Below are positions 25,958 through 45,437 of a stretch of 64,000 nt of DNA, in pieces (position 1 is the stretch's first letter; the number at the start of each line of letters is the position of its first letter). Both the position numbers and the translations under genes were made by a program. Where the stretch lies: assembly GCA_035653275.1 (NCBI GenBank), contig DASRCE010000002.1, forward strand, positions 13,267 to 77,266. The letters are read 5' to 3'. Under the pieces are notes generated by a model, which was given only the letters and a program-made list of their open reading frames with translations, was not told the DNA's origin and ran no database searches. This DNA is from Gaiellaceae bacterium. GTDB taxonomy: Bacteria > Actinomycetota > Thermoleophilia > Gaiellales > Gaiellaceae.

Positions 25958-27022
25958 TCAGGCGATCTCGGCGACGAGCGACTCCACGTTCACGGCGTAC
26001 ACCTTGACCGGAACGCTCTTGCCCTTCACCTGCAGCTCGCCGTGCGGCTCCACGGCGATCTCGCGGTCGAGCCCGTTGCGCGTGTGCTCGTCGATCAGGA
26101 TCGGGCGGCCGAGCTGCTTCGTGTGCGCCTCGAGGCGCGCGGCGACGTTGACCGTGTCGCCGACGCAGGTGTACGTCGCGCGCTGCTGCGTGCCCGTGTA
26201 ACCCGCGACGACCTTCCCCGAGGCGATGCCGACGCCGATCTGGATCTGCACCTTGTCGCGCGCAGCCTGCTCGTCGTTGAAGAGGCGGATCAGCTCGACC
26301 ATCTGGCAGGCGGCGAGCACCGCTCGCTGCCGGTGGTCGTCGCGCGGCAGGGGGGCTCCGAAGATCGCCATCAGGCCGTCGCCGACCATCTGGTTCACGA
26401 TCCCGCCTTCGCCGCCGATCGCGTCCATCATCAGCGTGTAGTAGTCGTTCAGGAGCTCGATCGTCTCCGACGGCTCGCGCGCTTCCGCGATCGACGTGAA
26501 CGAGCGGATGTCGCAGAACAGCGCGGTCGCGTCGACGTGCTTGCCGCCGAGCGAGAACCCGGAGGTGAGGAGGTCGTCCGCCACCTCCTTCGTCGCGAAC
26601 TTGCTGATCAGCTCGCGCTGCTGGTCGCGCAGCCGCTTCTTCTCGAGGCTCGCGCTGATGCGAGCGTTCAGCAGGACCGGGTTGATCGGCTTCGTCAGGT
26701 AGTCCTCGGCGCCCATCTCGACGCACTTGACGACGCTGTCGAGCTCGTCGAGCGCCGACGTCACGATCACCGGGATGTCGCGCAGGCGCGGGTCGAGCTT
26801 CATCTCGGCGAGCACTCCGTACCCGTCGAGCTCGGGCATCACGACGTCCAGCAGGAGCAGGTCGAAGTGGTCGCGGCGCAGAAGGTCGAGCGCGTCGCGG
26901 CCGTGCTCGGCGAACACGACCGTGTGACCCTGGCGCTCGACGCCGCGGCCGAGGAGGAGCCGGTTCACGCGGTTGTCGTCGGCGATCAGGATCGTCCCCG
27001 GCGCGGCGCCGGCTGCGCTCAA
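25958..27022 (-). CDS. Response-regulator receiver fused to a class III adenylate/guanylate cyclase
   Basis: REC domain: ILIADDN...LLLLDVVMPELDG...KP. Cyclase domain: ATALFCDIRSFTS...VNQMVGDGLMAIFGAP...YTCVGDTVNVAARLE. TTG start in a TTGA overlap with the kinase stop. Confidence 0.88.
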   Translation of the reverse strand: MSAAGAAPGTILIADDNRVNRLLLGRGVERQGHTVVFAEHGRDALDLLRRDHFDLLLLDVVMPELDGYGVLAEMKLDPRLRDIPVIVTSALDELDSVVKCVEMGAEDYLTKPINPVLLNARISASLEKKRLRDQQRELISKFATKEVADDLLTSGFSLGGKHVDATALFCDIRSFTSIAEAREPSETIELLNDYYTLMMDAIGGEGGIVNQMVGDGLMAIFGAPLPRDDHRQRAVLAACQMVELIRLFNDEQAARDKVQIQIGVGIASGKVVAGYTGTQQRATYTCVGDTVNVAARLEAHTKQLGRPILIDEHTRNGLDREIAVEPHGELQVKGKSVPVKVYAVNVESLVAEIA

Positions 27023-30000
27023 CGCGGAACCCCCGGACGCAGTGCCGCGAGTGCGTTCTCGAGCGTCTCGTACTCCTGCTCGATGCGCGCGACGACGCCC
27101 GCCGCTCCGTCGAGGCGGCCCTCCCTGGCGCGCTGCTCGAGCTCGCGGCACAGCTCGGTGAACTCGCCCGCCCCGAGCGTGGCGCCGTTCGACTTCAGCG
27201 TGTGCGCCGCGCGCCGGAGCTCGTCGGTGCCGTGGTCGTCGAGCGAGCGTCTGAGCGTCGCGAGCAAGTTCGGCGCGTCCGCCAGGAACGCGTCGATCAC
27301 CTCGGTCAGGAACTCGTCGCCGCCGAGGTCTCGGAGTGTGGAGAGGGCGCCTTCGTCGAGACGGCCGTCGGCGGGCGCTCCCGTGACCGGTCTCGCCCGG
27401 TCCAGCGCCTCGGCCAGCTCGTCGGGCCGGATCGGCTTCGCCACGTAGTCGTCCATGCCCGCCGCGAAGCACGCCTCCCGGTCCTCCGGGAGCGCGTTCG
27501 CCGTCATCGCGATGATGCGCGGCCGGGTCTCGGGCGGCCAGCGGTCGCAGATCCGGCGGGACGCGTCGAGCCCGTCGAGCTCCGGCATCTGCACGTCCAT
27601 CAGCACCACGTCGTAGCGCTGCCGCTCGAGCGCCTCGAGCGCCTCGACCCCGTTCCAGGCGACGTCGGCGCGATACCCGAGGCGATCGAGGAGCCGGAGC
27701 GCGACCTTCTGGTTCACCGCGTTGTCCTCGGCGAGCAGGATGCGCAGCGGCGACGCCGCCGGCTTGGCTTCCGCGACGGGCTCGCCGGGCTCCGGCTCCG
27801 GCAGGTGCTCCGCGAGCGCCTTCACGAGCGCGTTGTAGAGCTGCGAGGCCCTGACGGGCTTCGCGAGCTGCACCTCGAACGCCCCCGACGACTGGGCCTG
27901 CGGCAGCCGCCCGAGCGAGGTCAGGAGGACGAGCGGGAGCTCGCGCGCGTCGCGGTGCTTCCGGATCGCGTGCGCGAGGGTGAGCCCGTCCATCTCCGGC
28001 ATCATCATGTCGAGCACCGCGACGTCGAACTTCTCGCCCCGCTCGATCGACGCCAGCGCCTCGACGGGCGACGCGATCGCCACCGGCTCCATGCGCCAGG
28101 CGCGCGCGTGCCGCGTGACGATCTCGCGATTCGTCGCGTTGTCGTCCACGACGAGCACCCGCTTGCCTTCGAGCTGGGGCGCGTCGCCTTCCTCGATCCG
28201 GGCCGGCACCTTCGCCTCCTTCGCCGTCAGCTCGATGTGGAACGTCGAGCCCTCGCCTTCCGTGCTCTCGACCCACATCGCGCCGCCCATCAGCTCGACG
28301 AGCCGCTTCGAGATGGCGAGCCCGAGCCCGGTGCCGCCGTACCGGCGCGTCGTGGACGTGTCGACCTGGCTGAAGGACGTGAACAGCCGGCCCATCCGGT
28401 CCTCCGGGATCCCGATGCCGGTGTCGCGGACGGCGACGTGCAGCCGGCAGGCGTTCTTCTGCGCCGGCTCGGCGTCGACGGTGACGACGACCTCGCCCTG
28501 CTCGGTGAACTTGACGGCGTTCGAGAGCAGGTTGAGCAGGACCTGCCGCAGGCGCGCTGCGTCGCCGACGATTCCCGCCGGCGCGCCCTCGTCGACGAGC
28601 AGCCCCAGCTCGATCTCCTTCTCCCATGCGCGCGGCGCGACGATCTCCAGCGCTCCCTCGATGCACTCGCGGATGTCGACGGGCTCCTTCTCCAGCTCGA
28701 GCTTGCCGGCCTCGATCTTGGAGTAGTCGAGGATGTCGTCGATCACGTGCAGGAGCGCGTCGCCGCTCGACCGGACGACCTCGGCGAACTCGCGCTGCTC
28801 GGGCGTCAGGTCGGTGTCGAGCAGGAGGCCGGTCATCCCGATGACGGCGTTCATCGGCGTCCGGATCTCGTGGCTCATGGTGGCGAGGAACGCGCTCTTC
28901 GCCTGCGTCGCCGCCTCCGCCTCCTCGCGTGCGCGCTGCAGCTCGGTGATGTCGTGGTAGATCGCGTAGAAGCCGACGTGCTCGCCGTCGAAGTGGAGCG
29001 GAACGAGCATCAGCTCGACGTCGACGAGCGTGCCGTCCTTGCGCTCGCGCTGCGCGATGCGCTGCGCGCGCCCGTACTCGAGCGCCTCGCGCGTGAGCTC
29101 GCGGCCTTCCTCCCGATGCCCCTGGTGGAAGACGAGGTCGTCGATCGTGTGGCCCAGCGCCTCGTCCGCCGAGTACCCGAAGAGCTCGGCGGCCGCGGGG
29201 TTCCACCCCGTGACGCGCTCGTCCGCGTCCATCACGACGACCGCGACGGGGCTGACGCCGACGAGCGACTCGAAGAACTGCTTCTGGCGGCGGATCTCGG
29301 CGTGCGTGCGCGCGTTCTGGATCGCGACGCCGACGTTCGCCGCGATCGTCGCGAGCAAGCCGGTCTCCGCCTCGCCGAAGCGACCCTCCTCGTGGATGCT
29401 CTGCACGCTGATCACCCCGATCGCGAGCTCGCCGACGAGGATCGGGACGCCCAGGTACGAGCGCGACGGCGTCCCGACGCCTGCCCGCCCCTCGTACTGC
29501 TCCGCCCGGTTGAGCAGGAGCGGCTCGCGCGACTCGAGAATCTGCGAGGTGAGGCCCTCGCCGTACCGGAGCGGAGGCTCCTGCCGGCGCTCTCCGGCCT
29601 CGTGGTAGTAGACGAAGTCGATGCGCCCAGCCGCCGCGTCGTGCAGCGCGACGTATGCGATGTCGGCGCCGAACGTCTCGCGCACCCGCTCGCCGACCAG
29701 CTCGATCAGCGCGTCGAGCTCGAGCTGCGAGGCGAGCGCCTGCCCGACGCGGTTGACCGTCGCGAGCTCGGCTACGCGCTGCCGCGTCTCGTGGACGAGT
29801 CGCGCGTTGTCGAGCGCGACGCTGAGGCTGCCCGCGAGCGTGGTCAGCAGCCGTTCGTCCGCCTGCGTGAAGGCGTGAGTCCTGTCGACGTTCTGGAGCG
29901 ACACGACTCCGGTCGCGCGCCCTCCGACGAGGAGGGGGACGAAGAGGGCCGACTTGATCGGCTCACCGCTCAGCACGTACGGGTTGCCGTAGCGCTCCGC

Positions 30001-32352
30001 GACCTCCGGCACCGAGTCCTCGATCATCAGCGGCTCCCGCGTCTCCATCACGTGCTTCCGGAAGCCGATCAGCGGAATCGGGGCCTCCTCCAGCCGCTCG
30101 CCGCGCTCGATCACGTACGGGAACGTGAGGACCTCGGCCTGCTCGTCGTAGACGGAGATGCTCACGACCTGCGCGTCGAAGACCTCCTGCAGCTTGTCGC
30201 CGACGAGGTCGTAGATCGCCTGCGGGTCGAGCTCGCCGGCGATCGCGGCCTGGACGCTGTTGATGAGCGCGAGCTCGGCGTTCCGCTGGCGCGTCTCGTG
30301 CACCAGCCGCGCGTTCTCGAGCGCGACGCTGAGGCTGCCGGCGAGCGTGGTCAGCAGGCGCTGGTCAGCGTCGCTGAAGGCGTGCGTCCTGTCGAGGTTC
30401 TGGAGCGAGATCACGCCCGTCGCGCGGCCGCTGACGATGAGCGGGACGAAGAGATCCGACTTCGCCGGCTCGCCCGTCAGCACATACGGGTTGCCGTAGC
30501 GCTCCGACTCCTCGGGTGTGACCTCCGGGACCATCAGCGGCTCCCTCGTCTCCATGACGTGCTTGCGGAAGCCGATCAGCGGGATCGGCTCGTCGGGGAA
30601 CCGGATGCCGCGCTCGATCGCGTACGGGAAGTGGATCAGGCCCGACGGCTCGTCGTAGATGCCGATGTCCACCACCTGCGCGTCGAAGACCTCCTGGATC
30701 CGGTCGCCGACGAGGTCGTAGATCGCCTGCGCGTCGAGCTCTCCCGCGATCGCGGCCTGGACGCTGTTGATCAGCGCCAGCTCGGCGTTCCGCTGCTGCG
30801 TCTCCTGCACGAGGCGGGCGTTCTCGAGCGCCGCGCTGATGCCGCCGGCGAGCGTCATGAGCAGGCGCTGGTCGGAGTCGCTGAACGCGTGCTCTCGGTC
30901 GACGTTCTGCAGCGAGATCACGCCCGACGGACGGCCGCCGGTGAAGAGCGGGACGAACAGAACGGATTTCGGCACCTCGCCGACGAGCGACATCGGGTTC
31001 CCGTACCGCTCCGCCGCCTCGGTGACGTTCTCGTTGACGAGCAGCGGCTGCCCCGTCTCGAGCACGTGCTTGCGGAACCCGACCACCGGCATCGGCTCGA
31101 CGGCGAAGCGCTCGCCACGCTCCACCAGGTACGGGAAGCTGAGGAGGCCGCTCGCCTCGTCGTAGGCCGAGATGCTGACCGCCTGCGCGTCGTAGACCTC
31201 GGCGACCTTCTCGCCGACGATCTCGTAGATGGCCTGCGGGTCGAGCTGTCCGGCAACCGCGGACTGGACGGTGTTGATGAGCGCGAGCTCGGCGTTCCGC
31301 TGCCGCGTCTCGTGGACGAGTCGCGCGTTCTCGAGCGCGACGCTGAGGCTCTGCGCGAGTGTCTCGAGCAGCTGCTGGTCGGACGCCGCGAACGCGTGCT
31401 CGCGGTCGATGTTCTGCAGCGAGATCACGCCGGTCGCCTTGCCGCCGGCGACGAGCGGCACGTACAGGACCGACTTCGGCATCTCGCCCTGCAACACCGG
31501 GTTGCCGTACCTCTCCGCTGCGCCTGCGACGTCCTCGTCGAGCAGGAGCGTCTCGCGCGTCTCGATCACGTGCCGCCGGAACCCGATCAGCTCGATCGGC
31601 TCGTCGGGGAAGCGGACGCCGCGCTCGATCGTGTACGGGAAGTGCAGGAGCGCGGTCGCCTCGTCGTAGATGCCGATGTCGACGACCTGCGCGTCGAAGA
31701 CCTCCTGGAGCTTGTCCCCGACGACGTCGTAGATCGCCTGCAGCTCGAGCTCGCCGGCGAGCGCCTCCTGCACGCTGTTGATGAGCGCGAGCTCTGCGTT
31801 GCGCTGCCGCGTCTCCTCGATGGCGCGCGCGCGCGAGAGGGCTGCGCCGACGTGCTGCCCCACGAACGCGAGGAGCTCCTTGTCCTGCTCCGTGTACTGG
31901 ACGTCCTTCGTGTACGACTGCACGACGAGGACGCCGACGGTCCGCCCCTCGGCCTTGAGCGGCACGCCGAGCCATGTCGCCTCGGCGCTCGTCACGCCGA
32001 GGAGCGCGACCTCGCCCGCGTCGATCAGCTCGAAGATCCGAGCCGACGTGAGGAGCTGCGGCTCGCCGGTGCGGAGGACATACGCGGTCGTGCCGCGCGC
32101 TTCCCCGGTGCCGAGCGCGTCCCAGCGGTTCGGGGCCGGAGGGTCCAAGTCCGACTCGTCGACGTAGTACGGGTAGCTGATGAGCTGCCGCTCCTCGTCG
32201 TAGAGCGCGATGTAGAAGTTCTCGGCGTACATCAGCTCGCCCACGACGGAGTGGACCGCCCGGTAGAACTCCTGCATGTTCTGCGCGGCGCTCGCCAGCT
32301 CCGCGATCCGGAAGAGGGCGCGCTGAACCTGCTCGGACGATGGGGCCGGCAT
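27019..32352 (-). CDS. Hybrid sensor histidine kinase: 6 GAF, PAS, HisKA, HATPase, 2 REC, Hpt (1777 aa)
   Basis: H-box SHEIRTPMNAV, N/G boxes NAVKFT and DTGIGI..GGTGLGLAI, two receivers with DD/D/T/K, and Hpt HTLKSNGATLG. Confidence 0.92.
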   Translation of the reverse strand: MPAPSSEQVQRALFRIAELASAAQNMQEFYRAVHSVVGELMYAENFYIALYDEERQLISYPYYVDESDLDPPAPNRWDALGTGEARGTTAYVLRTGEPQLLTSARIFELIDAGEVALLGVTSAEATWLGVPLKAEGRTVGVLVVQSYTKDVQYTEQDKELLAFVGQHVGAALSRARAIEETRQRNAELALINSVQEALAGELELQAIYDVVGDKLQEVFDAQVVDIGIYDEATALLHFPYTIERGVRFPDEPIELIGFRRHVIETRETLLLDEDVAGAAERYGNPVLQGEMPKSVLYVPLVAGGKATGVISLQNIDREHAFAASDQQLLETLAQSLSVALENARLVHETRQRNAELALINTVQSAVAGQLDPQAIYEIVGEKVAEVYDAQAVSISAYDEASGLLSFPYLVERGERFAVEPMPVVGFRKHVLETGQPLLVNENVTEAAERYGNPMSLVGEVPKSVLFVPLFTGGRPSGVISLQNVDREHAFSDSDQRLLMTLAGGISAALENARLVQETQQRNAELALINSVQAAIAGELDAQAIYDLVGDRIQEVFDAQVVDIGIYDEPSGLIHFPYAIERGIRFPDEPIPLIGFRKHVMETREPLMVPEVTPEESERYGNPYVLTGEPAKSDLFVPLIVSGRATGVISLQNLDRTHAFSDADQRLLTTLAGSLSVALENARLVHETRQRNAELALINSVQAAIAGELDPQAIYDLVGDKLQEVFDAQVVSISVYDEQAEVLTFPYVIERGERLEEAPIPLIGFRKHVMETREPLMIEDSVPEVAERYGNPYVLSGEPIKSALFVPLLVGGRATGVVSLQNVDRTHAFTQADERLLTTLAGSLSVALDNARLVHETRQRVAELATVNRVGQALASQLELDALIELVGERVRETFGADIAYVALHDAAAGRIDFVYYHEAGERRQEPPLRYGEGLTSQILESREPLLLNRAEQYEGRAGVGTPSRSYLGVPILVGELAIGVISVQSIHEEGRFGEAETGLLATIAANVGVAIQNARTHAEIRRQKQFFESLVGVSPVAVVVMDADERVTGWNPAAAELFGYSADEALGHTIDDLVFHQGHREEGRELTREALEYGRAQRIAQRERKDGTLVDVELMLVPLHFDGEHVGFYAIYHDITELQRAREEAEAATQAKSAFLATMSHEIRTPMNAVIGMTGLLLDTDLTPEQREFAEVVRSSGDALLHVIDDILDYSKIEAGKLELEKEPVDIRECIEGALEIVAPRAWEKEIELGLLVDEGAPAGIVGDAARLRQVLLNLLSNAVKFTEQGEVVVTVDAEPAQKNACRLHVAVRDTGIGIPEDRMGRLFTSFSQVDTSTTRRYGGTGLGLAISKRLVELMGGAMWVESTEGEGSTFHIELTAKEAKVPARIEEGDAPQLEGKRVLVVDDNATNREIVTRHARAWRMEPVAIASPVEALASIERGEKFDVAVLDMMMPEMDGLTLAHAIRKHRDARELPLVLLTSLGRLPQAQSSGAFEVQLAKPVRASQLYNALVKALAEHLPEPEPGEPVAEAKPAASPLRILLAEDNAVNQKVALRLLDRLGYRADVAWNGVEALEALERQRYDVVLMDVQMPELDGLDASRRICDRWPPETRPRIIAMTANALPEDREACFAAGMDDYVAKPIRPDELAEALDRARPVTGAPADGRLDEGALSTLRDLGGDEFLTEVIDAFLADAPNLLATLRRSLDDHGTDELRRAAHTLKSNGATLGAGEFTELCRELEQRAREGRLDGAAGVVARIEQEYETLENALAALRPGVPR
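29785..31812. repeat. Four tandem ~507-bp (169-codon) in-frame repeats encoding paralogous GAF modules
   Basis: The DNA block encoding LSVALENARLVHETRQRNAELALIN recurs near 29790, 30296, 30802 and 31308. Confidence 0.8.
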
Positions 32353-33035: not shown

Positions 33036-33506
33036 TCAGGGCGTTGCTTTCAAGGCACGCGCTGCGGCGAGCCACTCGTCCACGTCCGGCACCTCACCCG
33101 ACTCGTACGCCCAGGCGTTCCGGATCGTCCCGTCCTCGCCGACGAGGAAGGCGGCTCGCCTCGCGACGTCGCGGAGGCCCCGGTGCTCGAATGCGATCTG
33201 GAAGCCGTGAACGGCCTCCGCGTTGAAGTCGGACAGCAGGCCGAAGTTCAGATCGAGCGCCTGCGTCCACGCGACGTGCGTCCACGGGGAGTCGCGCGAG
33301 ATGCCGACCGGCTGCACCCCGGCCTCGTCGAACTCGGCTCTCCTGTCACGCAGGAGCTCCATCTCGTTCGTTCAGGTCGAGGACCAGTCGAAGAGGTAGA
33401 AAACGAGCAGCTTCGGCCCGTCCTCGAGCAGCTCGGCGAACGTGACGGCCTCGTTCGGACCGAGGAAGACCGTCGCCTCGGGGACGCGTGCGCCTGCTTC
33501 GAGCAC
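33036..33506 (-). CDS. Peroxiredoxin (Bcp/AhpC-TSA family) with an in-frame TGA at the peroxidatic-Cys position; candidate selenoprotein
   Basis: GTG at 33506, 44 sense codons, TGA at 33374..33372, then the 108-aa ORF from the track in the same frame. The motif FYLFDWSST[TGA]TNE aligns with the family motif D-x-T/S-x-x-C-T-x-E. Total of 156 codons is typical Prx size. Confidence 0.65.
33329..33371 (-). promoter_or_regulatory. SECIS-like hairpin immediately 3' of the in-frame UGA
   Basis: In the mRNA, UGA is followed by 11 nt and then GGAGCUCCUG-CGUGA-CAGGAGAGCC. This gives a 6-bp apical stem, a 2x2 internal loop, 2 further bp, and GU in the loop. An optional outer helix is CGAAC/GUUCG. Confidence 0.5.
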
Positions 33507-33515
33507 GGCTCGACT

Positions 33516-34601
33516 CTAACCCGGGCAGCACCACCGGCCGCCGATCTCGGCAGAGCCGGCGAACTGCGAGCGGATGTTGGCGACCGCGTGCGCGGCCGAG
33601 CCGTGGAGGAACACCCACTGGTCGGCCGCCGGCCACTCGACGACCAGCCACCGCCCGTCGGGCGACCACGCGACGTCGCCGAAGCTGCCCGGGCCGGCGA
33701 GCACCAGGCGGCCGTGGCCCGGGCGGTCGACGTCGACGACGTACACCTCGCTGCGCCCGCCGCTCCGCACCCGCACGGCGAGCCGGTGCGAGCGCGGCGC
33801 GAAAGAGCCGGGCAGGAACCGCGCGCCGAGCATCGAGATCGTCCGCCGCTCCCGCCCGTTCCCGTCGAGGACGACGATGGCGCCGCGCGAGACGACGGCG
33901 AGGTACCGGCCGTCGCCCGACCACTCGAGCGCGGTCGGAGCGACCCAGACGCGGCGGCGCCAGACGAGCGGGCCGTCGTCGTGGCGGAGCACGACCGCGC
34001 CGTCCGCCACGTAGGCGAGCGTGTGCAGGCGCGCGGGATCCCAGGCCGCCGGCACGGCGCCGCCGCGGCGGTCGAGCAGGTGGTCGCCCGTGCCGTCGCC
34101 CCCCACCACGCGCAGCCCGCCGGGCGTGTCATAGGCGATCCGCGTGTCCGTCAGCGTCCCCTCCCAGCGCGGCGCGCGCGGGTGGCGGCGGGCGAGCGAC
34201 CAGCGGAGCTGCCCCGTCGGCGTCAGCGCGGCCAGCTCGGTCGGCGTGGTGGCGACGACGTAGAGGCCGTGCGGCGACCACTGGGCGTCGGAGTAGTCCC
34301 CGAGGTTGCGCTTGAGCCCGTTCGGCTGGACGACGAAGACGCGGCCATCCGAGACGACGAGGAGCCGGCCGCTGCCCGGCAGCGAGAACAGAGCCGGCGC
34401 CGCGTGCTCGACGCCGACCGCCTCGCGCACCTGCCGGAACACGGCGCGGCCGGAAGGGGAGAGCGCCGCTCCGACCAGGACGGCCGCGGCCGCGACCGCT
34501 GCGGCCGGCACGAGCCGCGACCGCGCCCGGCGAGGGGCGGTCGGCGGCCGCTCCTCGTACGCGCGGCGCACGACCTCCCAGGCGCGATCCTCGGGAGTCA
34601 C
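33516..34601 (-). CDS. Single-pass membrane protein with extracytoplasmic beta-propeller-like domain; anti-sigma candidate by position
   Basis: GTGA overlap with the ECF sigma stop, TM segment LVPAAAVAAAAVLVGAAL, and repeated WSPDG/DGRYL-type motifs. No ZAS motif. Confidence 0.7.
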   Translation of the reverse strand: MTPEDRAWEVVRRAYEERPPTAPRRARSRLVPAAAVAAAAVLVGAALSPSGRAVFRQVREAVGVEHAAPALFSLPGSGRLLVVSDGRVFVVQPNGLKRNLGDYSDAQWSPHGLYVVATTPTELAALTPTGQLRWSLARRHPRAPRWEGTLTDTRIAYDTPGGLRVVGGDGTGDHLLDRRGGAVPAAWDPARLHTLAYVADGAVVLRHDDGPLVWRRRVWVAPTALEWSGDGRYLAVVSRGAIVVLDGNGRERRTISMLGARFLPGSFAPRSHRLAVRVRSGGRSEVYVVDVDRPGHGRLVLAGPGSFGDVAWSPDGRWLVVEWPAADQWVFLHGSAAHAVANIRSQFAGSAEIGGRWCCPG

Positions 34602-35149: not shown

Positions 35150-36244
35150 ATGCGACGCCTCGCGCTGCTGCTCGTCCTCTGCGCGCTCGCGCTCCCGGCC
35201 TCGTCGCGCGCCGCCGCCTGCTCTCCGCTGAACTGCGCGCCGAGCCAGTTCGCGCTCGCCCACGGCACGATGCTCGCCGTTCGCGGCGACGCCTACAAGC
35301 CGCTGCGCGTGATCGACCTGCGGAGCGGCCGGACGCTGTGGCGGCTGCCGCCGGGAGTCGTGACGGGCGACGTGCTCGTGCACGCGGACGGCGACCTCGT
35401 GACCTGGTTCGACGCGGCGCGGGGGCCGCGGATCGGCGACGCGATCCTGCAGCAGCACGCGCGGTACTCGCTCGTCGGGACGTCGCAGGACGCGCAGACG
35501 GCGGTGCTCGCGCGCACACAGCACGGCTCGACGACCTTCGCCCTCGTCACCCGGACGGACCAGCGGCTCGTGCGGCTCGCCGGCCGCGAGTGGCAGTTCG
35601 ACGCGCTGAACGGCCGCTACCTGTACCTGATCCGGACGCTGGAGTACGGCTACCAGGTCCGCCTCTACGACCTCGCGACGGACACGCTGCGGCGGCAGCC
35701 GCTCAAGGACCCGCACGAGAGCGCGCTCATCCAGGGCATCCCGTTCGCGCGTGCGTCGTCGCCCGACGGGCGGTACCTGTTCACGCTCTACGTCGGCTCG
35801 AACGGAAACGCGATGGTGCACGAGCTCGACACCGCCGCCGGCTCCGCCCATTGCGTCGACCTGCCCGGCGACGGCGACTTCAACGCCGCGATCACGTGGG
35901 CGCTCGTCCCGGACGCGAACGGCGGCACGTTGTGGGCGGTCAGCGTCGGCTACGGCCGCGTCGTCGCCGTCGACGTCGCGGCGCACGCCGTGCGGTCGCG
36001 CTACTCGTTCCAGCGCGCGACGTGGACGTCGAACGCCGGCGTCGCGGCGCTCGCGCCCGACGGGGAGCACATCGCGGTGACCGACGCGCAACACACCTGG
36101 TTCGTGAACCTCGCCGACGGGAGGGTGCGCCGCGGCCCGAGCCACGTCGCGATCGCGCTCGGCTTCTCGCCCGACGACCGCCGGCTCTGGGTGGTCGGCG
36201 AGCGGAGCCGCGTCAGCGCGCTGCCGGTGCGCTGGGCGCGCTGA
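35150..36244 (+). CDS. Secreted beta-propeller-like protein
   Basis: Signal peptide MRRLALLLVLCALALPASSRAAA and SPDGRYLF/APDGEHI repeat motifs. Divergent from the ECF sigma gene. Confidence 0.7.
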   Translation: MRRLALLLVLCALALPASSRAAACSPLNCAPSQFALAHGTMLAVRGDAYKPLRVIDLRSGRTLWRLPPGVVTGDVLVHADGDLVTWFDAARGPRIGDAILQQHARYSLVGTSQDAQTAVLARTQHGSTTFALVTRTDQRLVRLAGREWQFDALNGRYLYLIRTLEYGYQVRLYDLATDTLRRQPLKDPHESALIQGIPFARASSPDGRYLFTLYVGSNGNAMVHELDTAAGSAHCVDLPGDGDFNAAITWALVPDANGGTLWAVSVGYGRVVAVDVAAHAVRSRYSFQRATWTSNAGVAALAPDGEHIAVTDAQHTWFVNLADGRVRRGPSHVAIALGFSPDDRRLWVVGERSRVSALPVRWAR

Positions 36245-37439
36245 CGGCGGCCTCGGTCGCCTCGGCGATCTCGCGGACGACCTCGACGATGTCGCGGTTC
36301 GCGTTCCACACGCGGAGCTGCCGGTCGGACCCGTTGCCGCGCGCCAGGATCTCGCGCACCCCTTCCAGCTCCCGCTCCGACCCGAGCTCGCGCGCGTGCG
36401 GCTCGACGTCGCGCAGCGTCCGGCGGACCAGCTGTGCAACGGGGACGCGGTTGCGGCGACCGGTCGCGAGGTCCATCACCGGCGCCTCCAGGCCGTAGCG
36501 CGCCGCGAGCCACTTGTTCTCGGTGGTCAGCAGCCGGTGCCAGCTCGGGATCTCCTTCCCGGCGTCGTAGAGCTCGCAGTACATCTTCACGATCGCCTGG
36601 AAGTACGCCGTGATCGCGATCACGTCCTCGAGCCGCGTCACGGCGTCGCAGACGCGCATCTCGAGCGTCCCGAGCCGCGGGTGCGGCCTGATGTCCCACC
36701 AGATGTGCGTGTAGTCGGCGATGCAGCCGGTGCGCTCGAGCTGGCCGACCACCTCGGCGTAGTCGGCGTAGTCCTTGAACCGCGGCGGCGGGCCCGAGCG
36801 CGGGAACGCCGCGAACACCATCTGCCTGCTCGACGAGAGGCCGGTCGGCTCGCCGCGCCAGAACGGCGACGACGCGGAGAGCGCGAGCATCTGCGGCAGG
36901 TGCACCAGCAGGCCGTTCATCACCTGGATCGCCTTCTCGGGATCGTCGACGGCGACGTGCATGTGCATCCCGAAGATCAGCTCGCGCCGGGCGACGTACT
37001 GCAGCTGGTCGACCAGGTTCCGGTAGCGGTCGCGCGCGGTGATCCGCTGGCGCTCGAACAGCGAGAAGGGGTGCGTGCCCGCCGAGCCGAAGCGGCACCC
37101 CTGGTTGCGCGCGATCTCGGCGACGTACCCGCGGAGCTGCGCGAGCGACCGCATCACGTCCGACGGCGTCCGGCACACCGGCGTCGTGACCTCGAGCACC
37201 GACTGCATCAGCTCGGCGTTGATCCGCGCCTCGTGCTCGCCGCGCTCGACCGCGGCCAGCACCGAGTCGATGTGCTGCACGAGGTCCCACGTCTCCGGGT
37301 CGAGCAGCATGTACTCCTCCTCGACGCCGAGCGTGTACGGGTCGCCTTGCCCGAACGAGTGGTCGAGGACGCTGGCCTCGCCGACGCGCTCCGCGACCGA
37401 TCCCTTGCCCGTGATCGAGGACGGGTAGATCTGCTTCAC
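36213..37439 (-). CDS. ybdK: Carboxylate-amine ligase (GCS2/YbdK family)
   Basis: LGVEEEYMLLD, HMHVAV, and the WWDIRPHPRLGTLEMRVCD motifs. GTGA overlap with ridA. Confidence 0.88.
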   Translation of the reverse strand: MKQIYPSSITGKGSVAERVGEASVLDHSFGQGDPYTLGVEEEYMLLDPETWDLVQHIDSVLAAVERGEHEARINAELMQSVLEVTTPVCRTPSDVMRSLAQLRGYVAEIARNQGCRFGSAGTHPFSLFERQRITARDRYRNLVDQLQYVARRELIFGMHMHVAVDDPEKAIQVMNGLLVHLPQMLALSASSPFWRGEPTGLSSSRQMVFAAFPRSGPPPRFKDYADYAEVVGQLERTGCIADYTHIWWDIRPHPRLGTLEMRVCDAVTRLEDVIAITAYFQAIVKMYCELYDAGKEIPSWHRLLTTENKWLAARYGLEAPVMDLATGRRNRVPVAQLVRRTLRDVEPHARELGSERELEGVREILARGNGSDRQLRVWNANRDIVEVVREIAEATEAAVSAPSAPAAR

Positions 37440-40762: not shown

Positions 40763-41077
40763 CTACGCCTCCGCCAGCCCCAGAGCCCTCTCGAGCGAGC
40801 CCTTGGGCATCGCCCCTACGGCCGACGCCTGCGGCTGCCCGTTCTCGAACAGCACCATGAACGGGATCGACGCCACGCCGTAGCGCTGCGCGAGGTCCTG
40901 GTGCTCGTCGATGTTCACCTTGACGAGCTTCACCTGATGCTCGTCGGCGATCCGGTCGAGGACGGGCGACACCGCATGACACGGCCCGCACCACTCGGCC
41001 CAGAAGTCGACGATCACCTTGCCGTCTTCCTGCAGGACCTCGATCTCGAACGTCTCGCTGGTTGCAATGGTCGCCAC
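40763..41077 (-). CDS. trxA: Thioredoxin
   Basis: WAEWCGPC active site; 104 aa; GTG start preceded by AAAGGAAG. Confidence 0.95.
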   Translation of the reverse strand: MATIATSETFEIEVLQEDGKVIVDFWAEWCGPCHAVSPVLDRIADEHQVKLVKVNIDEHQDLAQRYGVASIPFMVLFENGQPQASAVGAMPKGSLERALGLAEA

Positions 41078-41117
41078 TGTCTTCCTTTCGGTCAGTCGTT
41101 CTCCAGGATCAAAACGC

Positions 41118-41145
41118 GCGAGCGGGGTCGGTTCTTCCCGCTCGC
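41118..41145. promoter_or_regulatory. 9-bp GC-rich hairpin GCGAGCGGG-N10-CCCGCTCGC in the trxA/ileS divergent region
   Basis: Read directly from the sequence; ends 15 nt before the ileS-like ATG at 41161. Confidence 0.4.
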
Positions 41146-41160
41146 TACTCTCACCAAGCC

Positions 41161-44199
<3,039 letters not shown>

Positions 44200-44205
44200 G
44201 CCGCG

Positions 44206-45189
44206 TCAGTTTTGCCGCTCGGCGAGCGCGAGCTCGCGGCGCAGCTCGACCGGGAGGCGGAACTCGACGTCCTCCTCGACGAGCCGGTACGGCTCGATGT
44301 CGTCGACACCGCGTGCGCGAAACCATTCGCACACCCGCTGGACGAGCTTCTCCGGTGCCGACGCGCCGCTCGTGATCCCGACCACCTCGACACCGTCGGT
44401 CCACGACTCGTCGATCTCGCTCTCGTCGTCGATCAGGTACGCCGAGATGCCGCCCGCGCGCGCGACCTCGACGAGGCGGTTCGAGTTCGACGAGTTGCGA
44501 GACCCGATCACGAGCAGCAGGTCGATCTCCGCGAGCATCTCCTTCACCGCCCACTGGCGGTTGGAGGTCGCGTAGCAGATGTCCTCCTTCTTCGGCGCGC
44601 GGATCTCGGGGAACCGCGCGCGGAGCGCGGCGATGATCTCGGCCGTCTCGTCGACCGACAAGGTGGTCTGCGTGATGTACGCCAGCTTCGTCCCAGCGGG
44701 GAACTCGAGCCGCTCGACGTCGCCGGACGACTCGACGAGCACGATCCGGTCCGGCGCCTCGCCCATCGTGCCGATCACCTCCTCGTGGCCGCCGTGGCCG
44801 ATCAGCACGATCGTGTAGCCGTCGGCCGCGTACCGCCGCGCCTGCACGTGCACCTTCGTCACGAGCGGGCAGGTGGCGTCGATCGTGCTGAGCCGGCGCG
44901 CTGCGGCGTTGTCGTAGACGGCCGGCGCGACGCCGTGCGCGGAGAAGACGACCGTGGCGCCCTCCGGCACCTCGGTCTCCTCGTCGACGAAGATCGCCCC
45001 CAGCGCCTCCAGGTCGCGGACGACGTGCAGGTTGTGGACGATCTGCTTCCGGACGTACACCGGCCGGCCGTAGAGCGAGAGCGCCTTCTCGACCGTCTCG
45101 ACCGCGCGCTCGACCCCGGCGCAGTAGCCGCGGGGCGACGCGAGCAGCACCTTCCGCACCACGGCGCCAGGGTAGACGGTGTCAGACAC
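44206..45189 (-). CDS. ispH: 4-hydroxy-3-methylbut-2-enyl diphosphate reductase
   Basis: LASPRGYCAGVERAV, VHN, TCPLVTKVH, and the SSNSNRL motifs. GTG start at 45189. Confidence 0.95.
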   Translation of the reverse strand: MSDTVYPGAVVRKVLLASPRGYCAGVERAVETVEKALSLYGRPVYVRKQIVHNLHVVRDLEALGAIFVDEETEVPEGATVVFSAHGVAPAVYDNAAARRLSTIDATCPLVTKVHVQARRYAADGYTIVLIGHGGHEEVIGTMGEAPDRIVLVESSGDVERLEFPAGTKLAYITQTTLSVDETAEIIAALRARFPEIRAPKKEDICYATSNRQWAVKEMLAEIDLLLVIGSRNSSNSNRLVEVARAGGISAYLIDDESEIDESWTDGVEVVGITSGASAPEKLVQRVCEWFRARGVDDIEPYRLVEEDVEFRLPVELRRELALAERQN

Positions 45190-45206
45190 TCTTGGTGTCT
45201 GACACC
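45178..45206 (-). promoter_or_regulatory. 12-bp perfect hairpin pairing the ispH 5' UTR with its start codon and first four codons
   Basis: GGTGTCAGACAC (45178-45189, the coding start) is complementary to GTGTCTGACACC (45195-45206), with a 5-nt loop. Confidence 0.5.
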
Positions 45207-45215
45207 GGGAACCGA

Positions 45216-45265
45216 CACGAAGAAGCCCGCTGCTCGGGGGGTCGTCGCAGCGGGCTTCTGTCGTG
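45216..45265. other. Strong 13-bp (extendable to 18-bp) GC-rich hairpin with a 13-nt loop in the ispH leader region
   Basis: AGAAGCCCGCTGC (45221-45233) pairs with GCAGCGGGCTTCT (45247-45259). Flanking CACGA/TCGTG extends the stem. No U-tract on either strand. Confidence 0.5.
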
Positions 45266-45437
45266 ATCGCTCACCGCGGCATGGCCAGGAACGCGCGCCG
45301 CGGTTCGCATCGCCCAGTGCGCGGGACGCTACCGACGCGCGTTCGCGTCCGGAATAGGCCGAGCGGCCCATCTTTGAAAGAAGGGCGCGTACGCATCCCG
45401 CGGAATACCATTCGAGCACCTCGGACGGGGGAGCCCA

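Follow-up and report, generated by a model that had tools for sequence, protein, structure and literature searches.

A Gaiellaceae peroxiredoxin gene whose in-frame TGA at the peroxidatic position is probably decoded as selenocysteine

Peroxiredoxins are an established family of bacterial selenoproteins, for which PMC13188914 names PrxU of Eubacterium acidaminophilum as the prototype (Sohling et al. 2001, as cited there); 12 peroxiredoxin selenoproteins were counted in a survey of 2006 and 91, from 78 organisms, in a survey of 2016, and Actinobacteria have already been noted as rich in selenoprotein families. Members of this family (PF00578) combine the AhpC/TSA fold with a selenocysteine (Sec) replacing the peroxidatic Cys in an S/T-x-x-U motif, a hairpin situated within the coding sequence (CDS) after the UGA codon, and the existence of Cys homologues. 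The same set of traits, with Sec predicted at codon 45, is found in a gene on the minus strand (33506..33036) of the 64,000-nucleotide stretch of Gaiellaceae DNA analyzed here, hereafter called the window. An earlier inspection of the letters and open reading frames (ORFs) of the window, hereafter the sequence-only reading, had drawn attention to this gene and had described Sec-containing peroxiredoxins as known in a few anaerobes; the family is indeed not new, but its distribution, 78 organisms in 2016, was understated.

Most probably (we estimate a probability of about 0.92), the UGA codon at this position is decoded as Sec by means of a downstream hairpin, yielding one 156-residue peroxiredoxin. 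The reading frame opens with a GTG codon 9 nt past the TAG codon (33518..33516) of an upstream PD40-like gene, runs through 44 sense codons (VLEAG...DWSST) to the in-frame TGA, and continues with 111 further sense codons to a terminal TGA, whereas the program-made ORF list contains just a 108-aa piece (33036..33362) of it; both points agree with the sequence-only reading. UGA is otherwise the commonest ordinary stop codon in the window, ending 15 of the 22 confident genes, the peroxiredoxin gene included, and recoding at codon 45 would therefore be site-specific. For protein searches, a Cys residue was placed at the in-frame TGA of the joined product. The product then matched Pfam AhpC-TSA (PF00578) over residues 5–130 (E = 4.9e-22; 78.6 bits against a cut-off of 26), and also Redoxin, in accord with its earlier assignment as a peroxiredoxin. 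The best match among solved structures was the BCP of Aeropyrum pernix (PDB 2cx3; E = 1e-20, residues 2–150), and AhpE of M. tuberculosis was aligned over its full length (residues 2–153 to 2–152, E about 2e-12).

In these alignments, the TGA position pairs with the active-site Cys of the BCP/PrxQ structure 2cx3, and with the Cys of 11 orthologues described below, so that its placement at the peroxidatic position by the sequence-only reading is upheld. The T/S-x-x-C/U motif is present as W-S-S-T-[TGA], with a Ser three residues before the recoded codon, and the active-site Ser and Arg positions of 2cx3 align as well. In the latter region, the segment 'vaRRaaFlv' of the window protein is aligned to 'vaKRavFiv' of 2cx3, and its Arg is presumably the catalytic Arg, judging from general knowledge of peroxiredoxin structures. 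The 156-residue protein contains no Cys residue at all, in contrast to 2cx3, in which another Cys follows at a distance of five residues (CTKELC). With the 1-Cys peroxiredoxin AhpE (Rv2238c) it has in common its size, a single catalytic chalcogen, the lack of a resolving Cys, and an actinobacterial host, although AhpE uses Cys and the similarity is modest. No NCBIfam model, including those for equivalogs, reaches its cut-off on the window protein: PRK09437 (Bcp) gives 48.3 bits against 140, NF053650 (PrxQ) 39.6 bits against 260, the resolving Cys at +5 being absent, and NF040737 (PrxU) 25.8 bits against 270. The window protein does not belong to the PrxU family; it is short, BCP/AhpE-like, and free of Cys, and its motif is LxxxSxxU rather than the PxxxTxxU given in the review. 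It is predicted to be a short BCP/PrxQ- or AhpE-like peroxiredoxin with a single catalytic Sec and without a resolving Cys, which would therefore have to be recycled by an external reductant. At codon +31 relative to the TGA (33279..33281, 'SPWTH'), a second Cys (SPWCH) occurs in 8 of 11 Cys-type orthologues and Thr in all Sec forms; this Cys may be a resolving Cys found only in the Cys forms.

Decoding as Sec would depend on the RNA just downstream of the UGA. The consensus model of the bacterial Sec insertion sequence (bSECIS) quoted in PMC13188914 places, downstream of an in-frame UGA, an upper stem of 4–16 bp with an apical loop of 3–9 nt, in which a G stands at the first or second position and is usually followed by G or U, with 16–37 nt between UGA and apical loop and a minimum free energy of at most −7.5 kcal/mol. 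In the window gene, a 6-bp stem carries the 5-nt loop CGUGA, whose second position is G and whose third is U, at a distance of 21 nt from the UGA, and the fold energy is −8.7 kcal/mol for the 23-nt core, −18.3 kcal/mol for UGA plus 60 nt, and −7.4 kcal/mol for the bare 17-mer. The element thus agrees in every quoted point with the bSECIS model, as it does with the bacterial geometry claimed by the sequence-only reading. The hairpin that it described is present, with GU in the loop and the spacing as given; however, the stem of 10 bp proposed there consists of six perfect pairs followed by two mismatches and two G–C pairs, and the outer pairs are not conserved. The element resembles the E. coli fdhF/fdnG-type bSECIS in lying within the CDS just past the UGA and in having a small loop with G then U, an upper stem of at least 4 bp, and a 21-nt spacing; it differs in showing no sequence similarity to the E. 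coli SECIS and in a primary sequence identical in every TGA form sampled.

The conservation of this element is specific to the genes that carry TGA. The 21-nt block GAGCTCCTGCGTGACAGGAGA is the longest invariant run in the gene, the nearby codons wobbling freely, and the Thr codons flanking the TGA are likewise frozen at their synonymous sites in the TGA class only. Counted over degenerate codons with an invariant amino acid, the TGA class is nucleotide-invariant at 10 of 10 inside the element and at 9 of 62 in the rest of the gene (Fisher p = 1.7e-7), whereas the Cys class shows no contrast (2 of 8 inside, 13 of 61 outside). The Arg codons frozen in the element, CGT, AGG, and AGA, account for 6.8%, 4.9%, and 0.7% of the Arg codons in the confident genes of the window, and the Cys class has CGC or CGG at these positions. 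Pairing of the upper 6-bp stem is intact in each of the 18 TGA forms; counting the six stem pairs and the flanking 21–39 pair, 100% of the upper-helix cells are paired in the TGA forms against 40% in the Cys forms. Of the six stem pairs, three are disrupted in 10–11 of the 11 Cys forms. The hairpin sequence occurs nowhere else in the window (0.01 chance matches expected). A possible lower stem enclosing the hairpin has 96.7% of its cells paired, with two one-sided, G–U compatible changes and three broken cells, but it is partly present in the Cys forms and overlaps conserved amino acids, whose conservation may be all that it reflects. From these data, we infer that the upper hairpin is a SECIS bound by SelB.

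The TGA codon itself is widely shared. A scan of one genome per species of the Genome Taxonomy Database (GTDB) yielded 28 loci from metagenome-assembled genomes (MAGs) of Gaiellaceae/Thermoleophilia, of which two with a frameshifted gene were set aside from all counts. Among the remaining 26 syntenic orthologues, the codon at this site is TGA in 15 and TGC or TGT in 11. The same GCS2-family gene adjoins in 26 of 26 loci, and the full order GCS2, hypothetical, ECF sigma, PD40-like, peroxiredoxin, and DUF2269 is kept in 22, so that the TGA and Cys forms are positional orthologues. Including the window and four metagenome contigs, in addition to the 15 MAG loci, at least 20 independent assemblies keep the TGA, at about 60–88% amino acid identity to the window protein. 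A mutation or sequencing error confined to this strain, which the sequence-only reading had named as a possible refutation, is thereby ruled out. All 26 orthologues share the position of the start codon, which is either GTG or ATG. In the TGA class, dN/dS is 0.27 (dS 0.59) for the 44 codons upstream of the TGA and 0.22 for the downstream part, and in the Cys class 0.18 for both parts of the gene; purifying selection acts on both sides of the TGA. In the two frameshifted loci, both from long-read MAGs, a Cys precedes the frameshift in one (L027:10001-10463) and the gene is broken upstream of the site in the other (L028:10001-10433), which may represent assembly indel errors or true pseudogenes.

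The machinery for Sec insertion was sought starting from the authentic SelA, SelB, and SelD proteins of E. coli K-12. The E. coli SelA led to a sel cluster from an actinobacterium, carried by a Tsukamurella plasmid, and an alignment of four diverse SelA proteins was then used to scan metagenome contigs, giving 80 loci. Some of these loci have a Gaiellaceae-like tetranucleotide signature (r = 0.92–0.94) with adjacent selA and selB, and the database relatives of one such SelA include entries named 'L-seryl-tRNA(Sec) selenium transferase [Gaiellaceae bacterium]', with identities reaching 96%; among the 120 matches listed, all clusters with a computed identity stand at about 80% or more. On DATKMO010000013.1 (MAG GCA_035541815.1) and on a 2.47-Mb MAG contig, both of Gaiellaceae-like composition (r = 0.95), selA is followed by one inserted gene and selB, the SelB proteins of both contigs contain the SelB beta-barrel and third winged-helix domains, and selB is followed downstream by a tRNA-Sec gene, at about 5 kb in the former and at 85 nt in the latter. 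The scores on the two contigs exceed the curated thresholds throughout: 523 and 527 bits for selA (cut-off 268), 344 and 330 for selB (cut-off 242), and 70 and 68 for tRNA-Sec (gathering score 47). We know of no purpose other than Sec insertion that selA, selB, and tRNA-Sec serve. The gene inserted between selA and selB encodes an O-methyltransferase in the first of these loci (L118, 10001-13907) and a GNAT acetyltransferase in the second (L122, 10001-13478), with selD not nearby.

In the predicted mechanism, which is modeled on the established bacterial Sec pathway, a transcript spanning the sigma factor, PD40-like, peroxiredoxin, and DUF2269 genes would be translated, and the hairpin 21 nt past UGA-45 would be bound by SelB together with GTP and Sec-tRNA(Sec). 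SelB would then hand Sec to the ribosome while competing against release factor 2, and the chain would be extended through UGA-45 to the real stop codon at the end of the gene. The selenolate of the product would reduce peroxide and be converted into selenenic acid, which an external thiol reductant would recycle. That the inserted residue is Sec, that the product has peroxidase activity, and which reductant serves it are predictions made from the gene and its relatives.

Several observations weigh against decoding as Sec and have to be set beside the evidence described above. In all TGA forms, Leu stands in place of the Pro that is canonical for the PxxxT/SxxC motif (YLFDWSSTU); Leu is also found at this position in 26 Cys-type relatives and Pro in 50, and a coupling of Leu at position −7 to Sec was rejected, because these 26 matches likewise read LxxxSxxC. 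Folding of the single window sequence gives a hairpin no better than those of shuffled sequences (z = −1.02), so that the significance of the hairpin comes from the comparative data only. Searches of the element against Rfam, at gathering and at permissive thresholds, returned no SECIS or other meaningful match. All six upper-stem pairs are invariant, and no compensatory double changes are seen in the 18 sequences; the conserved hairpin expected from the sequence-only reading is identical in all 18 TGA forms and absent from the Cys forms, yet shows no covariation, since the stem never varies, and the case for the RNA is built on its specificity to one class and on synonymous sites that are frozen. 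At an outer pair (alignment columns 18–42) both G–C and C–G are seen, but it is unpaired in about 40% of the sequences and was not counted as covariation. As for the machinery, neither selA, selB, and selD nor tRNA-Sec is present in the 64-kb window, whose five tRNAs are all ordinary, or in the 20-kb flanks of the 28 related loci. No SelD was located in any Gaiellaceae locus: a tblastn search of seven candidate loci (L107 and L088 included) with the Tsukamurella SelD detected selD in one of them only, L038, whose character is not Gaiellaceae-like, and the gene calls of L118–L122 contain no SelD-type (AIRS) domain. Among the SelA matches listed, none falls in the accession block of HZU19649.1, the database record of the window gene, and the machinery is not tied to the window's genome. 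The Sec machinery on which the sequence-only reading depended is accordingly borne out for Gaiellaceae MAGs with respect to selA, selB, and tRNA-Sec, but not for the same genome or for selD. In favor of recoding, on the other hand, the signal is specific: other recoded genes, defined by an in-frame TGA with a coding signal in GC at third codon positions (GC3) on both sides, were found neither in the window nor in the flanks of the 28 relatives (about 540 kb) nor in the Gaiellaceae selA/selB loci.

These gaps give some room to explanations in which Sec is not involved. The absence of the machinery from the window, together with the treatment of the TGA as a stop by gene callers, would suit a gene killed or truncated by a nonsense mutation or an assembly error; we nevertheless regard this as practically negligible, considering that the TGA persists across at least 20 independent assemblies diverging to about 60% identity, with purifying selection on both sides and a class-specific hairpin frozen at synonymous sites, and a single clonal contaminant as the source of the TGA forms is excluded by their divergence at other sites. 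Truncation also fails to provide a usable second product: the ATG that opens the 108-aa fragment is replaced by CTC or CTG in 11 of 16 TGA forms, and the piece therefore has no conserved start. The same fact speaks against two polypeptides of 44 and about 108 aa assembling into a split enzyme, an idea that the two ORFs of public annotation might invite; such an enzyme would lack the catalytic residue, and the Cys-type orthologues are all single chains, making this explanation hardly credible.

Programmed read-through of the UGA without Sec, in which the hairpin helps a near-cognate tRNA to insert a standard residue (Trp, Cys, or Arg) or slows termination, deserves somewhat more weight, although we consider it improbable. 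Other systems are known in which a downstream RNA structure stimulates read-through, and the insertion of Sec is here deduced while selD and a same-genome link to the machinery are missing; on the other hand, the codon stands precisely in place of the catalytic Cys, a position at which peroxiredoxin chemistry needs Cys or Sec, the hairpin obeys every geometric rule for a bSECIS, and selA, selB, and tRNA-Sec are encoded in Gaiellaceae. Still less probable is a hairpin that lies beside the TGA by accident and serves some other role, for instance in attenuation, in mRNA stability, or as a site acting at the level of protein or DNA. The element is conserved as a sequence and shows no covariation, so a reader other than SelB could be imagined, but the hairpin accompanies the TGA in 18 of 18 forms, survives among the 11 Cys forms only as the relic in L023 described below, fits the bSECIS rules in position and loop, and is not repeated in the window.

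Public databases do not represent the gene as such. At NCBI, the window gene is recorded as HZU19649.1, which comprises just the 108-aa fragment, and the annotations of JGI and ENA give a 44-aa ORF and a 108-aa ORF. In a second TGA clade, at about 60% protein identity, the database entries (P0071 and P0078; also P0061, P0082, P0092, and P0097) read '...FDWSSTWTNELELLRDRS...' with Trp at the active site, although the corresponding DNA carries TGA (L123:87-545, L124:1-459, L125:349-807, and L126:55-513); the Trp arises because metagenome pipelines applied genetic code 4 to contigs carrying the TGA. The 20-nt core GAGCTCCTGCGTGACAGGAG is identical in this divergent clade, in which the next codon is AGC (Ser) instead of the AGA (Arg) of the main class, adding a seventh G–C pair. 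Among the best 120 database matches, 30 are truncated at MELLRDR, six have Trp and one has Gly at the site (at least 37 mis-annotated), and the Gly entry would fit genetic code 25. The suspicion of the sequence-only reading that automatic callers miss or truncate the gene is fully supported by these truncated, split, or mistranslated entries; mis-annotation of this peroxiredoxin gene is the rule, a systematic error whose correction is of practical value. Selenoproteins on short, high-GC contigs can, it appears, flip the gene caller's choice of genetic code.

The relationship between the Sec and Cys forms was examined by neighbour-joining, after masking of the region around the active site. In the resulting trees, the main Cys clade (bootstrap 87) is nested inside the diversity of the Sec forms, with weak support for the deep nodes; the Cys form L023 and some Cys-type database matches are scattered among the Sec forms, and the more distant outgroups are of the Cys type. 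L023 (TGC; L023:10130-10197), placed among the TGA forms in both trees with weak support, has a near-intact hairpin, CUCCUG-CGCGA-CCGGAG, whose energy in the SECIS fold is −7.4 kcal/mol, compared with −8.7 kcal/mol for the Sec forms and +2.6 and +4.6 kcal/mol for two Cys forms of the main clade. It looks like a decaying SECIS relic left by a recent change from Sec to Cys. This pattern suggests that the Sec form arose once and that Cys was regained at least twice thereafter, the single origin being the simplest reading because the SECIS is identical everywhere. We go further only tentatively in proposing that the Sec form is ancestral for the Gaiellaceae orthologue group, that Cys reversion has occurred repeatedly and left decaying SECIS relics, and that the SECIS is read sequence-specifically by the SelB of this lineage, a combined scenario that we hold to be rather unlikely as it stands. 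Sequence-specific reading by SelB would explain why about 20 nt are identical across lineages whose proteins share about 60% identity.

The literature searched contains nothing about Sec being used in Gaiellales or Thermoleophilia, and nothing about a Sec form of the BCP/AhpE type. The present locus reveals no new mechanism; it adds the Gaiellaceae (Thermoleophilia), a widespread soil lineage, and a Cys-free BCP/AhpE-like subfamily to the known Sec peroxiredoxins. Sec and Cys forms at the same chromosomal position, together with the relic hairpin, offer a clean natural comparison for Sec/Cys exchange and for the birth and decay of SECIS elements. If the ancestral-Sec scenario is true, the peroxiredoxin could be a principal reason for the retention of the complete Sec machinery in this abundant family of soil actinobacteria, and the positional orthologues would be natural matched pairs for assessing what Sec buys a peroxiredoxin.

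Table 1. Features of the peroxiredoxin gene and its neighbors in the window
Feature	Position	Strand	Basis or remark
Complete recoded peroxiredoxin gene	33036..33506	-	Frame reading, Pfam, orthologue starts, dN/dS
GTG start codon	33504..33506	-	GTG or ATG at the same position in 26/26 orthologues
In-frame TGA, putative Sec codon at the peroxidatic position (LFDWSST-U-TNE)	33372..33374	-	Orthologue and 2cx3 alignments
Terminal TGA of the peroxiredoxin gene	33036..33038	-	Frame reading
21-nt block GAGCTCCTGCGTGACAGGAGA	33339..33359	-	Identical in 16/16 main TGA-class sequences; first 20 nt identical in 18/18
SECIS-like upper stem-loop CUCCUG-CGUGA-CAGGAG	33340..33356	-	6-bp stem, 5-nt loop
Second invariant block ACC-TGA-ACG-AAC-GA around the putative Sec codon	33364..33377	-	Invariant run −3..+10
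Possible lower stem CGAAC (33366..33370) / GUUCG (33329..33333)	33329..33370	-	Encloses the upper hairpin; weakly supported
PD40/Tricorn-like gene, 361 aa	33516..34601	-	Upstream; synteny in 22/26 loci
ECF-type sigma-70 factor gene, 165 aa	34598..35095	-	Overlaps the PD40-like gene by 4 nt
DUF2269 membrane-protein gene, 195 aa	32431..33018	-	Downstream of the peroxiredoxin gene

The PD40-like gene and the peroxiredoxin gene are probably in the same operon (Table 1), and the 9-nt gap between them, with the overlap of the PD40-like and ECF sigma factor genes, suggests a stress-responsive operon. About 3 kb upstream lies the GCS2-family (glutamate-cysteine-ligase-like) gene (36213..37439, minus strand), which has 85–91% identity in all 26 loci, and a thioredoxin gene is located at 40763..41077 (minus strand); a relation of either gene to the reductant system would be pure speculation.

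Elsewhere in the window, the one other in-frame TGA candidate, at 44197..44199 (plus strand), was rejected, being the true stop codon of a gene that ends at 44199 (its stop-to-stop frame is 40924..44199); the apparent coding signal past this position is the antisense strand of a convergent gene (44206..45270, minus strand). Downstream of the peroxiredoxin and DUF2269 genes, a 1777-aa protein (27019..32352, minus strand) contains many tandem GAF domains (four GAF/GAF_2 pairs and 17 more entries in Pfam). It is overlapped and followed by a response-regulator/guanylate-cyclase gene (25958..27022, minus strand), and among the related loci this pair is found downstream only in L014.

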